A DNA stretch of 29,790 nucleotides from a virus. Its lineage: Duplodnaviria; Caudoviricetes. The notes under the pieces were generated by a model, which saw nothing but the letters and a program-made list of their open reading frames with translations, had not been told where the DNA came from and searched no databases. The position numbers were made by a program, and so were the translations under genes. The stretch lies in the IMG/VR virus record IMGVR_UViG_3300046739_000328, positions 1 through 29,790 of that record, one strand, 5' to 3'. This document shows positions 916 through 9,380 of this stretch, one piece after another. Numbering within the stretch: the first letter of the stretch is position 1; every line of letters starts with the position of its first letter.

Positions 916-2052
916 TGAGACGCTGGGCACGACCAGCACCGGCGCCGGCGTGAACCCCGGCGTCGTCGCGGTGAACCCCGCAATCGCCGCGGCGTCGACT
1001 TCGCCATGCGCCGCCTTCGTGTACCGGGCGGTCATCACTGAGCCCTCGGCGTGCAGCATGAGGCGCGCGACCGTCGCCTGATCCCCGGTCACGCGATACA
1101 TCTGCGCCCCGAAACTGTGGCGGAGGTCGTAGAGCGTAAAGTGCGCCAACCCGATGCGGCGCGCCGCGCGTTTGACCGACACATTCACCGGCCCGACGGC
1201 GAACGGCCCGCAGGCGCCGGCGCGGATGAGCGCGGCCAGGGCGGCGGCGCCCTGCGTTGTCAGCTTCAGCCGCCGCGCCTCGACGCCCTCGCCTTTGTGC
1301 CGTTTGGGCACGCGCACCGTCGGCGGTGTGTCCGTGAGCCGGCAGTCGGCCGGCGTCAGCTGGCCGAGGAGGCCCGGCGGGATGCCCGTATAGGCGACGA
1401 CCGCGGCGCGGAGTTTCGAGAACGCCGTCGTCTGGCCGTGCGTGACGTAGTAGTAGTCCGGCATGGCGTCCAGTAGGCGCGCGACCGTGGCGTAGTCGGT
1501 GCCGCGGACCTCGGGCGGGCCGGGCGCAAAATTCTGCGCGTCCTGCACAGGGTTGCGCAGCTCGAGCCCGGCGTTAAGCACGGCGTAGAACGTGCGCAGC
1601 GAGTTGCGATACTTGCGAATCGTCTGCGGGTCGAGGCCGCGGGCCCGGACCGGCCGGCCGCGGTCCGTCTGGCGCGGCGGGGCGCAGAGGAGCCACTGCT
1701 GAATGACGGTGTTGATGTCGGCAGTCGTCACCGAGTGGCGCGACCGATCGCGACCTAGCGCGGACGCCCACTGGTGTAAGTGCGCAAGGATTTGCGCGCG
1801 CGTCGGTTTGGCGACGATCAGGCGTTCGTAGTTCGCGATGTCCTCGGCGAGGCTCGTCGCCGTGGCGCTGCGGCTGCCGCCGCCGAAATGCTCGCGCTTG
1901 GTGGCCGTCCGCCACGCGGCGATCGTGGCGAGCGGCGTGCCGGGATCGAAGGATTGCCGATAGAGCACGCCGCGCACGCGGACATAGCCTTCGAGTTTAT
2001 TGCCCTTACGGCGCACACCCTTCCCGATCGATTGGCCTTTGCGTTTCGTCAC
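868..2052 (-). CDS. int: Tyrosine recombinase / phage integrase
   Basis: YTG(IPP), YDLRHSF, LMLH and MTARY motifs; 394 aa; next to an att core. Confidence 0.9.
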   Translation of the reverse strand: MTKRKGQSIGKGVRRKGNKLEGYVRVRGVLYRQSFDPGTPLATIAAWRTATKREHFGGGSRSATATSLAEDIANYERLIVAKPTRAQILAHLHQWASALGRDRSRHSVTTADINTVIQQWLLCAPPRQTDRGRPVRARGLDPQTIRKYRNSLRTFYAVLNAGLELRNPVQDAQNFAPGPPEVRGTDYATVARLLDAMPDYYYVTHGQTTAFSKLRAAVVAYTGIPPGLLGQLTPADCRLTDTPPTVRVPKRHKGEGVEARRLKLTTQGAAALAALIRAGACGPFAVGPVNVSVKRAARRIGLAHFTLYDLRHSFGAQMYRVTGDQATVARLMLHAEGSVMTARYTKAAHGEVDAAAIAGFTATTPGFTPAPVLVVPSVSKLPRVAKRAASRPGY

Positions 2053-2678
2053 AGTGCTTCGTCTTTCTCACTCACGGCGGGTTTGCTGTTCTTCTTCTTC
2101 GGTCGCCCGCGGCGCGGTGTGGGCGCTGGCGGCGTGGATGGTGGCGGGGCCTCCGGCGTGGCCTCTAGTGCGGCGATGTCGGCGTCGGTCTTTGTGAGCA
2201 TCTGGGCGAGGTCGCGGCGGAGCTGTTGGAGCTTGTCACGCCGCGCGCGCGTGGCCTTCTCGGTCGCGAGCATGTCGACGCAGACCGACACACACACATC
2301 GCAGATATACACGGCGCTCTTTCCTTGGATCAGGAGCTCTATCTCGTCATCGCCCAGCCCACAAAACGAGCACGCGACGCCACTCACGGTCTTGTTCTTC
2401 ACCGTCTCGTCACTCATGAGCTGCACCTGCGCGGGTTTCTCGATCGCCGGTGCGCCATTCGTCGTGAGGGCCGCTGGCGTCGTCCCAAGGAGGCGCGCGA
2501 GACGCGCGAGGGTTTCGTGGTTGGGATACTGCGCGCCGCGCTCGAGCGCGCGCAACGTGTTCGGGGTGATGCCGGCCTGCTGACAGAACGTCGCTTTATT
2601 GAGATCCAGCTGGGCGCGCCCCATCCGAAGCCGTTCGGCGAATGACCGGAGGAGATCGTCCGTGTCGCGGTCGGTCAT
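2049..2678 (-). CDS. XRE HTH regulator fused to a ClpX-type C4 zinc finger
   Basis: N-terminal FAERLR...TLRALERG HTH; CSFCG...LLIQG..VYICDVCV matches the ClpX zinc-binding domain pattern. Confidence 0.8.
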   Translation of the reverse strand: MTDRDTDDLLRSFAERLRMGRAQLDLNKATFCQQAGITPNTLRALERGAQYPNHETLARLARLLGTTPAALTTNGAPAIEKPAQVQLMSDETVKNKTVSGVACSFCGLGDDEIELLIQGKSAVYICDVCVSVCVDMLATEKATRARRDKLQQLRRDLAQMLTKTDADIAALEATPEAPPPSTPPAPTPRRGRPKKKNSKPAVSEKDEAL

Positions 2679-4675: not shown

Positions 4676-4986
4676 CGCCGATGCCGCCCGAGCTCCGACC
4701 GGCCGCGCCGGCGCCGACCACCTTCCTCAGCCCCCGTGCCGTCATTCGCGGGACCGCGTGGGTCGTGCCTCGCCGCGGCGACCCCGGCACGCCCTATTAC
4801 TTGATCGTCACCGGGCCTGACCAGGACCCCGGCGCCGCCGAGCAGCTCTATCTCACGCGCGACCCGGCACTCTACGCGATGGCTGTCGCGCTCGAGGGGA
4901 GCGAACGCCGCGTGCAGTTGCAGTGGCATCCAGGCCAGGCTGTCGGCGGCCAGCGCGCGCGCCGTGTGCTCGAGATGATCAGATGA
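4672..4986 (+). CDS. Hypothetical protein
   Basis: Start/stop overlaps with both neighbours. Confidence 0.55.
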   Translation: MTPMPPELRPAAPAPTTFLSPRAVIRGTAWVVPRRGDPGTPYYLIVTGPDQDPGAAEQLYLTRDPALYAMAVALEGSERRVQLQWHPGQAVGGQRARRVLEMIR

Positions 4987-6687: not shown

Positions 6688-6893
6688 AGCAACGCAGTCA
6701 CTGAACGATCCAATGGAGTCAATTAGCGAATCGATCGACTCAGAGGATCTAGGCACAGAGTCAGGGACCGAGTCATGGATGCAGGCAGACAGATATTCAA
6801 CGAGGGAACGAACCAAGACCACGCACGAATCGAACGAAGCAGCCGAATGACGGGAGTGATAAAGCCAAGCAATCGAACAAAGGAGCCAACAGA
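6688..6893 (+). repeat. A-phased tetramer array 1 (ANNS)n; putative guide ncRNA
   Basis: A at every 4th base, with 18 consecutive in-phase As at 6747-6815. Shorter runs on either side are separated by 1-2 nt phase slips. Confidence 0.9.
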
Positions 6894-7709
6894 ATGACGA
6901 CAAAAAAGACCGAGAGCCAGAAGGCGGACGGTGCCACCGTCACCGTCCGCTACGATTCCGAATCCATCGCCAATATGGCGCTGAAGGTCAAGGCCGAGGG
7001 CTTCGTGCCGGCCGAGGACCTCAAGGCGGAATTCGGCCCGGAGAAATTCACGCGCGGCGTTGCGGTGCTCTATCGCGATTTCCGCATGTTCCGGGAAGTG
7101 CGGCGCGCCTGGAAGGACGGCGTTGACGCGCTCGGGTATGAGTGGGCCGATCGGCGCTTCAGCAAATCCGAGGTCAAGAAGATTCCCCCGGAGCTCGGCT
7201 TCCTCGTGGACCTCGCGAGCCCCATGGCGCCGAAGTACAGCGACTTCCAGAGCGTGACGGTGAAATGCCGCTACGTCACCGCGGCGCTCGGCGGCTGTCC
7301 GGTGAAGGACACGGACGGCTCACCGATCAACGCGTTTGAGCGCGACCGCGACGGCCAGATCCAAATCCTCCGCTACAACCTGCGCGCGATGATTACGCCG
7401 GCGCTCCCGATGATCGGCAAAGAGCAGGCCCTCGCGCGCCGCATCGGGTTCAAGACGATCCGCATCGCGACCAATGGCAACCTCTCGAAGGTCGAGCGGC
7501 CCGTCAACGACCACGGCCAGGGCAAGGGGTTCTGCCGGAGCGAGAAACTCGCGGATGGCACGGACTTCACCATCGAGGCGCTGATTCCGACGTCGATTCT
7601 CTCGGTGTCGGAGTATGTGCAGGCGCTGCGGCTTGCTGGCGAGATGGTCGGCTTGTCGCCGGGCCGATCGGCCGGATTCGGCGATTTCGAGGTGATCGAG
7701 GTCGGCTAA
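6894..7709 (+). CDS. Solitary Cas7-like RAMP protein with an N-terminal extension
   Basis: RAMP motif order VTVKCRYVTAALGG / DGQIQILRYNLRAMI / EKLADGTDFTI / C-terminal glycine loop AGEMVGLSPGRSAGFGDFEV; AAGGAG RBS. Confidence 0.75.
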   Translation: MTTKKTESQKADGATVTVRYDSESIANMALKVKAEGFVPAEDLKAEFGPEKFTRGVAVLYRDFRMFREVRRAWKDGVDALGYEWADRRFSKSEVKKIPPELGFLVDLASPMAPKYSDFQSVTVKCRYVTAALGGCPVKDTDGSPINAFERDRDGQIQILRYNLRAMITPALPMIGKEQALARRIGFKTIRIATNGNLSKVERPVNDHGQGKGFCRSEKLADGTDFTIEALIPTSILSVSEYVQALRLAGEMVGLSPGRSAGFGDFEVIEVG

Positions 7710-7714
7710 ACACG

Positions 7715-8238
7715 ACCGATACAGCTAATGAATGACTGATCGAACGATCGAACGAACAGACGCACGCAGTGAACTAAGGATCGAAAGATCTAGCCAGGCA
7801 GACAGCCCAAGGATGCAGGAAATCACACAACAAATGACGGATGGACCGATCGAAAGACCAAAAGAGCGATGCAGGCCGAGTGAATTACAGAGGCAGGCTA
7901 GCGATACAGAGATGGAAAGAGACACTGACGCACGCAACGAGTCTCACGCATCGATGCACCAACTCATGGAATTAGCTAACGACGCAGCTAATCCACAGAC
8001 GGACCGATCGAGTGACAAATGGATGGAATAAGTCCCGGACCGATAAAAGCAAGGAAGGATTCACAGATCCAATCAGCTATCAATTCATGGAGACAGCGAA
8101 ACACGGACTGACCGAAGCGACGGATAGATAGACGAAAGTACGGATAGAACGAACGACCGAGGCATTGACGGAACGAAGCAGTGACGAAAGTTCAAACATG
8201 CAAGGAAAGAGGTCAAACGCCATGCAGACAATGACCGA
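7715..8238 (+). repeat. A-phased tetramer array 2 (about 500 nt); putative guide ncRNA
   Basis: In-phase A runs: 7715-7755 (11), 7756-7804 (13), 7809-7873 (17), 7900-7940 (11), 7946-7990 (12), 7995-8115 (30 of 31), 8116-8188 (19). Confidence 0.92.
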
Positions 8239-8734
8239 CCCCGCAGTTGATGCCGCCGAGAATCCCACCGCACGCACGTGGAGCGCGACGGACGCCTATG
8301 TCCGGCAGGCGCTCACGGCCATCAAACGCGGCGCGGTCACGACCGCTGACGAGCTCGTCACGTGGGATTACGAGCACGATCAGCGACTCTTCGATTGGAA
8401 CGATCTGACGGCGGCCGCCTGGGCACGTAAGGCCCAGGCGGTCTTGTTCTTCAATCGCTTCCGCGGCGTCTTCGACAAGATGCGCATCCGCGCGCTGATT
8501 CACGTCCGCGAGGACGCCGACGCGGTCCTGGCCATCGAGGCGTCGGGCTACTTTCCCGTCGAGATGATTGCCGATCATCCCGGGATGCGCGCGCAGGTCA
8601 TCAGCGATCTCGTGCGCCGCATGAAAGTGCTCGCGAGTGAACTGCGACTATGGAAGCTGACGCGCGAAGAACAGGCGGTGATGTTCCGGCAACTCGCCGA
8701 GGTGATCGATGGAACGAACGACGAGGCCGCGTAA
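8222..8734 (+). CDS. RAMP-associated hypothetical protein (F[DE]W[ND]D..AA...R..QA type)
   Basis: LFDWNDLTAAAWARKAQA...IRALIHV...GY motifs; GAGG RBS before ATG 8222; enclosed by arrays 2 and 3. Confidence 0.7.
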   Translation: MQTMTDPAVDAAENPTARTWSATDAYVRQALTAIKRGAVTTADELVTWDYEHDQRLFDWNDLTAAAWARKAQAVLFFNRFRGVFDKMRIRALIHVREDADAVLAIEASGYFPVEMIADHPGMRAQVISDLVRRMKVLASELRLWKLTREEQAVMFRQLAEVIDGTNDEAA

Positions 8735-8745
8735 CCGCGTGGCCG

Positions 8746-8826
8746 ACTGAGCGACGAAATGAAACACGCAGGAACCTATTGACCCAGAGAATCAATCAGG
8801 CAGACACAGAGCGATTGAACTAACCA
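8746..8826 (+). repeat. A-phased tetramer array 3; putative guide ncRNA
   Basis: 21 consecutive in-phase As from 8746 to 8826, the last being the A of the next ATG. Confidence 0.92.
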
Positions 8827-9380
8827 TGCTGTACGTCGACGACAAATTCCCCGAACATCCGAAGCTGTTCAAGGCCGCCGCGAAGCTCGGGCCGAACGGC
8901 GGCGCCCAGGCGCTCGCGCTCTACATGGTGGGTCTGGCGTACGCGCGGGAACACCTCACCGACGGGTTTGTCCCCATGCACCTCGTTTGTGCTTGTGGTC
9001 TCGTTCAGACACCACAAGACGTGGCGAACGTCCTCTGTTCGCGGAGCGTTCGACTGTGGCATCGGGTACCCGGCGGCTTCCTTATTCACGACTACCTCGA
9101 CTGGAACCCAAAAGCCAGTCTCATCAAAGAGAAGCGGGAAAAATGGCGCGCGAAAAAGGAGGCGCAACGGCGCGGCGGGAACGGGCAGTACCGCGGGGAG
9201 TCCCCGGGGGAGTCCCCCGGGGACGTGCGCCGAGACTCGCGCGCGCCCGTACCACGATCCAAGTACGTACTAGTACCGGGAGAGGCACGATCGGATCGTA
9301 CGGGTTCTAGTACCTTCCGTGTATTAACCGCCGCTGCGCGTCGGTTTGTACGAAAAACCGACGAAAGACAGGCCGCCTAG
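8826..9380 (+). CDS. Phage replication initiator / replisome-organiser-like protein
   Basis: VDDKFPEHPK...AYAREHLTDGFVP...IHDYLDWNP...KREKWRAKK; internal DNA repeats. Confidence 0.7.
   Translation: MLYVDDKFPEHPKLFKAAAKLGPNGGAQALALYMVGLAYAREHLTDGFVPMHLVCACGLVQTPQDVANVLCSRSVRLWHRVPGGFLIHDYLDWNPKASLIKEKREKWRAKKEAQRRGGNGQYRGESPGESPGDVRRDSRAPVPRSKYVLVPGEARSDRTGSSTFRVLTAAARRFVRKTDERQAA

Follow-up and report, generated by a model that had tools for sequence, protein, structure and literature searches.

A probable VIPR-like guide system in a temperate phage, with Cas7-fold protein and arrays of four-base A/NNN units

In a genome fragment of a temperate soil phage, arrays of four-base units, each a fixed A followed by three variable bases (A/NNN), lie around a gene for a protein with a RAMP/Cas7 fold. 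When the A is deleted, three array segments from this locus and a related one match conserved motifs of phage recombination and packaging genes, in both orientations and with the third base of each unit on the wobble position of the target codon. Each decoded segment reads as a rival gene's sequence into which an A has been inserted after every third base, following the wobble base. Judged from sequence, structural models and analogy, the system likely works like VIPR. We hold, with somewhat more confidence than doubt, that the arrays are guide RNAs for the adjacent Cas7-fold protein, that the third base would be paired but tolerant, and that the complex would silence the DNA of rival phages. 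The stretch analysed, hereafter the window, comprises 29,790 nucleotides of the IMG/VR record IMGVR_UViG_3300046739_000328 (Duplodnaviria; Caudoviricetes).

Table 1. Coordinates of the array locus and its parts in the window
Feature	Position	Strand	Description
Array 1	6688..6891	+	Phased A/NNN units 5' of the RAMP gene, up to 18 in a row (6747-6818)
Bet-matching 12-unit segment of array 1	6747..6794	+	After A deletion, sense match to GQxGPxWCGxD of Bet/RecT
Vipr-like protein, 271 aa	6894..7709	+	RAMP/Cas7 core at residues 116-271, C-terminal glycine-rich loop, N-terminal extension of ~105 aa
Array 2	7715..8213	+	About 10 phased runs with short phase slips between them
Partner gene	8222..8734	+	Vap-like position, mostly helical; start at 8222 or 8231 inferred
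GGCCG motif	8741..8745	+	Immediately 5' of array 3
Array 3	8746..8825	+	20 A/NNN units, up to the next start codon
Array 3 units 12-19	8790..8821	+	Lead only: weakly matches, in antisense, the EVKAWSP motif of an exonuclease family with a Cas4 domain
Replication-initiator-like gene	8826..9380	+	PHROG 2447, E 1.7e-23; directly 3' of array 3

Arrays and genes of the locus

Three arrays enclose two genes, encoding the Cas7/RAMP-fold protein and a partner (Table 1). Array 3 consists of 20 consecutive units with A first, and the ATG of the next gene keeps its phase. The 20 triplets that a first-pass annotation had listed for this array after removal of the As were confirmed letter for letter, and a recount agreed with its third-base G/C figures of 16/20 for array 3 and 15/17 for 6747-6814 (given there as 6747-6815). 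In array 3 this compares with 12/20 at position 1 and 10/20 at position 2 (binomial P 0.019), and over 1564 pooled units G or C occurs 789, 925 and 1163 times at positions 1, 2 and 3. When the 80 bases of array 3 were shuffled 20,000 times, phased-A runs reached at most 14 units.

The periodicity is confined to this locus, as all 10 period-4 A runs of at least eight units in the window fall in 6747-8829. In the window and the 26 distinct loci related to it, 94 runs of at least nine units lie in the 58 kb beside the RAMP gene, on its own strand, against none in 324 kb elsewhere; such runs occur in 24 of the 27 loci, window included, and flanking A/NNN arrays were found at 23 of the 26 related ones. 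Duplicate loci (L007, L018, L029, L174, L175, L383-L389) and 120 loci from a motif scan were excluded before these counts. That scan, for a generic period-4 motif in viral contigs (8 of 64 parts), returned no locus with the RAMP protein and only one of 120 with a diverse run. Array 3 is not an assembly artefact, since it appears with identical letters on contigs from other soil runs (X4, X7, X12 and X19; likewise on X3, which may itself be the source of the window). No strain variants were seen within the arrays across eight runs. In array 2 the run lengths vary from 5 to 20 units, and the slips of 1-4 bases between runs do not always fall at target boundaries. One clade member (L016:10865-10938 and L017) shows phased As over a short, weak stretch only, which may be an array that is decaying or reduced.

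The motif GGCCG precedes 18 of 54 arrays, compared with 5% of random positions, and its copy before array 3 is a candidate 5' handle or processing mark. By eye, the 3' flanks consist largely of ribosome-binding sites and start codons, and many of the arrays continue into the start of the following gene; in one related locus the last units of a 29-unit run (L006:1182-1297) themselves form the partner gene's ribosome-binding site and start codon, in phase. No Rfam family matched the arrays, no sigma-70 promoter match was found, and the arrays fold less stably than shuffles.

The 271-aa protein has 111 homologs and is modelled with a pLDDT of 92.4. Its core adopts a Cas7/Csm3 fold (Z 12.5, rmsd 3.7 over 155 residues) in a fold search against a library to April 2026, in which type III and VII subunits are the best matches. 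A profile of this core with 56 distant relatives has SUSP1 Vipr as its first PDB match (36pp_D, E 0.0017), covering the glycine-loop region only. Among 35 records of related phages, the same profile also detects four loci bearing five-base arrays; in these related phages (L386, L387, L388, L389) the RAMP homologs accompany five-base arrays anchored on G. Five-base and four-base systems coexist in one phage community. The protein belongs to no Pfam or PHROG family, its ESM Atlas matches are all under 0.9, and it was not found in named genomes, in cultured phages or in genomes sampled from the likely host order and phylum (401 + 401). The N-terminal extension (6894-7210) is modelled as three helices and a hairpin, winged-helix-like in secondary structure, and a similar extension occurs in some distant relatives. 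As for the partner, a homolog is the next gene after the RAMP gene in 19 of the 26 distinct related loci; the family corresponds to PHROG 15946, of unknown function, in 19 of 20 members, and the model reaches a pLDDT of 77.

A protein family scan found an integrase, repressors, RecT, terminase, capsid and portal in the window, the gene set of a temperate phage. Close relatives of its terminase occur in Vicinamibacterales bins (three of the five best matches), no more than a hint that this order may supply the host. The replication-initiator-like gene 3' of array 3 is phage context outside the system; it contains a short G/C-rich tandem repeat (9194-9224), possibly an origin element. Elsewhere in the window (2049-2678, minus strand), a helix-turn-helix protein fused to a ClpX-type C4 zinc finger is encoded between the integrase and a second repressor-like gene.

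Targets read after deletion of the fixed A

For the decoding, 150 A-deleted runs were searched against phage loci fetched using real proteins as bait, with a final set of 372 loci. Two runs, holding three segments, exceeded their shuffles; the other 148 had no match above shuffles in the 372 loci. Relatives of Bet and terminase were added to the loci once marginal first matches to these genes had appeared, an enrichment that favours real guides over shuffles. The matched genes are to be taken as family members, not as proven natural targets. With a target step of 2 or 4 bases, no match rose above shuffles.

The first segment lies in array 1. Without its As it matches the Bet motif at 11/12 residues in the best of 120 Bet proteins (P0123); five of the matched columns are invariant among the 120, and agreement ends at unit 13, a position at which every one of the 120 has glycine. 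The earliest Bet match was marginal (69, best shuffle 68). One Bet gene (L430) then gave a sense match of 31/33 nt over units 2-12, with a score of 27, where the best of 750 shuffles scored 18, and 10 of its 11 third bases agree with the segment. In another, PHROG-annotated Bet locus (L032), 23/24 first and second bases match and 4/12 third bases. The window's own RecT is of a distant type that does not have the GQxGPxWCGxD motif.

The 29-unit run of L006 matches terminase in antisense at two motifs, which are about 14 codons apart in the gene and adjacent in the array, in antisense order. One motif matches 9/9 residues in two proteins and the other 13/14 residues in P0414. The earliest terminase match had a score of 16, equalled by 11 of 750 shuffles. 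A stretch of L413, retrieved without terminase as bait, matches the first motif in antisense at 27/30 nt, including 8/10 third bases; measured against codon usage, the third base matches at 8 of 9 sites where 5.0 are expected. The first-pass proposal that the A-deleted triplets spell a target code was borne out in sister arrays of array 3, for Bet and terminase and with a three-base step.

Array 3 itself, for which that proposal was made, has no established target. Its best lead is an antisense match of units 12-19, in the wobble register, to the EVKAWSP motif of an exonuclease family of related phages (PHROG 1990, Cas4-domain), with 16/16 first and second bases and 5-6/8 third bases. Shuffles reached this in 3-4% of cases (12/300 for the gapped score, 8/300 for the contiguous one). 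In the loci searched, the proposed comparison of A-deleted and gapped searches with shuffles had a positive outcome for two runs and not for array 3. The match does not extend beyond units 12-19 in 30 family loci, would require base 3 to mismatch at an invariant lysine, and stops immediately short of the conserved glutamate. Going by sequence, the motif may be the target of these units, though we would sooner expect that it is not. Units 1-11 had no match among the loci searched. The A-deleted array is open in the forward frame and in the antisense frame.

No decoded run matched above shuffles in the window or the RAMP loci, which would have indicated targeting of own genes, except for the Bet match in L001. 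This locus has two segments in common with array 2 (window 7900-7943 and 7946-7973; L001:4179-4223 and 4760-4787). In the first of these all 11 forward-frame residues are kept in L001 despite four codon changes and a one-base slip. The segment presumably resembles a tyrosine-recombinase motif. An integrase target for it was sought and none was found among the phage loci searched.

The third base and competing readings

In all three matched segments, sense and antisense alike, base 3 coincides with the wobble base of the target codon and is immediately followed by the fixed A; the first-pass annotation had suggested a check of codon phase. The searches that found these segments favoured this register. 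In a hand count over Bet and terminase, base 3 fits the conserved residue at 13/13 two-fold or single-codon sites (chance ~8e-5), which argues against the earlier suggestion that the G/C bias merely reflects a protein preference with base 3 free.

Beyond the matched segments, a mixture fit to 155 segments assigns 24% to the sense and 57% to the antisense wobble frame, together about 81% compared with 33% for random registers. However, shuffling base 3 gives similar weights (0.25 and 0.46), and the fit is thus composition-driven; a protein preference for G/C could generate the register. The antisense wobble frame has 15 stop codons against 24.5 in shuffles (P 0.009) and is codon-like with z 6.1 relative to base-3 shuffles, while all six frames exceed z 2.5. 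Array 3 had earlier been read as forward codons, a reading that is not supported; segments of antisense appearance outnumber sense ones, and the only lead for array 3 is antisense.

Comparison of the window with L001 adds a second view of base 3, as the units of their common segments differ at 1, 0 and 6 of 18 for bases 1, 2 and 3, and all four altered codons in the longer segment are synonymous. Either drift at a position that tolerates change or independent copying of synonymous variants would fit this pattern. Across arrays G makes up 47% and C 27% of third bases, where codon copying predicts 42% G and 40% C; one idea is that G may be preferred as it could pair with both C and T.

Two models had been put forward at the outset, namely that the three variable bases pair contiguously with the target while the A is flipped out, or that only two are read and the skipped base falls on the wobble position. 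Each seems half right, as far as the sequences tell. The first has in its favour that base 3 matches the targets at 10/11 and 8/10 sites, and the second that the register is wobble-aligned, but base 3 carries target information. A full copy in a wobble-aligned register combines the two, and neither alone fits.

Among the alternatives to a paired but tolerant base 3, the nearest is that all three bases pair equally and the A alone is looped out, the wobble register being a by-product of a G/C preference beside the A. We consider this unlikely. It would account for the near-exact contiguous matches, for the fit of base 3 to conserved residues and for the fact that base-3 G/C tracks the locus's own third-codon-position G/C (rho 0.57, 24 non-independent loci). 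However, the common guides vary mostly at base 3, the three matched segments are all wobble-aligned (though the searches favoured that register), and reading bases 2+3 or 1+3 gave no new target.

Lower still in probability is a reading of bases 1 and 2 alone, as in VIPR, with base 3 and the A serving as a protein-selected scaffold of two bases. If base 3 were scaffold, it would not be expected to predict the target, and yet every informative site fits, 10 of 11 third bases match in L430, and the antisense frame is codon-like against base-3 shuffles. The three-base step and the wobble skip are the same as in VIPR, however, base 3 has an excess of G beyond codon copying, and the best Bet match by first and second bases, in L032, shares few third bases, all of which this reading would explain.

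We give similarly little credence to the possibility that the complex binds messenger RNA instead of DNA, like the type III Csm3 filaments closest in fold. The best fold matches, to type III and VII subunits, and the excess of antisense over sense segments point in this direction. Against it, the Bet and 7900 segments are sense on the operon strand and would be unable to pair with mRNA if the arrays are co-transcribed, and VIPR binds double-stranded DNA. That the arrays are decayed repeats or DNA-binding sites of the partner protein is very improbable despite the 148 of 150 runs without a match above shuffles and the missing RNA family match, as the units are highly diverse, restricted to the RAMP locus and decode to conserved foreign-gene motifs with sharp ends.

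A probable VIPR variant with a four-base code

VIPR consists of Vipr, Vap and a vrRNA, with the reference type II system from Escherichia phage SUSP1 (bioRxiv 10.64898/2026.04.26.720920, 10.64898/2026.04.26.720927, 10.64898/2026.10.15.759431). According to the portions of these reports available, double-stranded DNA is bound (10.64898/2026.04.26.720920, 10.64898/2026.04.26.720927), and two bases are read while the third target base stays unpaired, giving a three-base target step (10.64898/2026.04.26.720920, 10.64898/2026.10.15.759431). The seven types are all described as pentanucleotide (GGY/NN, or NNNGG, YNNNG, NNNNG), and the term "tetra" is absent from the text and supplement as available (10.64898/2026.04.26.720920). 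Non-canonical five-base arrays have been reported as GAC/NN, CAC/NN, WGT/NN and TGH/NN; the accessible part of that survey names periods of 5, 7, 8, 10, 18 and 60-79, not 4, and describes 66 clusters outside the main bands in part (10.64898/2026.10.21.760802). The literature searched, as far as its text was accessible, held no four-base guide system, and published figures or data could include the clade in undecoded form.

Several features are in common with VIPR, for instance a phage-borne, stand-alone RAMP protein with a glycine-rich loop, and a minimal locus of RAMP gene and one partner gene (Vap-like by position) flanked by short-period arrays. Guides of VIPR, in the published portions available, span about 9-16 units, and the segments matched here about 10-14. 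The three-base target step, the wobble alignment and the targeting of rival mobile elements are likewise common to both, as is the targeting of both strands, here with Bet in sense and terminase in antisense, on the count of three segments only. In contrast, VIPR has a five-base unit with GGY or a related G-based scaffold, whereas the unit here has four bases and one fixed A; three bases vary instead of two, the third copying the target base that VIPR omits; the conserved structured 3' tail of VIPR was not seen here by eye or with Rfam; and the protein carries an extra 105 aa at its N-terminus. The non-canonical VIPR arrays offer a precedent for a scaffold sequence that changes while the protein fold stays, but a period of 5 and two variable bases are kept throughout in the arrays described in the accessible text. 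As the units are not pentamers, we do not class the system as canonical VIPR, and regard it as a VIPR variant with its own four-base code.

Class 1 CRISPR provides a second reference. Besides the common fold with Cas7/Csm3, the Cas7 guide keeps a complementary base where the thumb disrupts pairing, at every sixth position (10.64898/2026.04.26.720920, accessible portion), and we infer the same for base 3 here. CRISPR spacers are contiguous, unlike the present units with their inserted scaffold base. No CRISPR direct repeat-spacer family was present among the window's 20 largest repeat families, and no Cas family among 20 window proteins scanned.

By analogy with VIPR structures, we propose that the Cas7-fold protein would polymerise along the guide RNA with one four-base unit bound per subunit, and that its thumb would interrupt pairing once per unit. 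The fixed A would be flipped out of the duplex and the other three bases presented to rival phage genes. Bases 1 and 2 would pair strictly, and base 3, beside the flipped A, would be complementary yet tolerant of mismatch, so that guides survive synonymous change. The target would be double-stranded DNA, on either strand, and recombination and packaging genes could as a result be silenced at the level of transcription. Array 3 may provide one or two further guides of about 8-12 units each.

If this is correct, a RAMP filament would be able to alter its step and devote three of every four bases to the target. The four-base unit would give a shorter guide with more specificity per base, and the code is a possible link between gapped and contiguous guides. 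How guides are acquired in VIPR is given no explanation in the published text accessible. Since the A-deleted array is a near-verbatim copy of its target, targets can be read directly and guide acquisition becomes testable. Tentatively, and with more doubt than belief, we suggest that the guides are written as codon-register copies of a rival gene to which an A is added after every third base, which would make this a third RNA-guide code, between the gapped one of VIPR and the contiguous one of CRISPR. If true, the guide retains the base that VIPR discards and would constitute a direct record of guide acquisition, a record that includes two separated pieces of a terminase gene placed side by side, in order.
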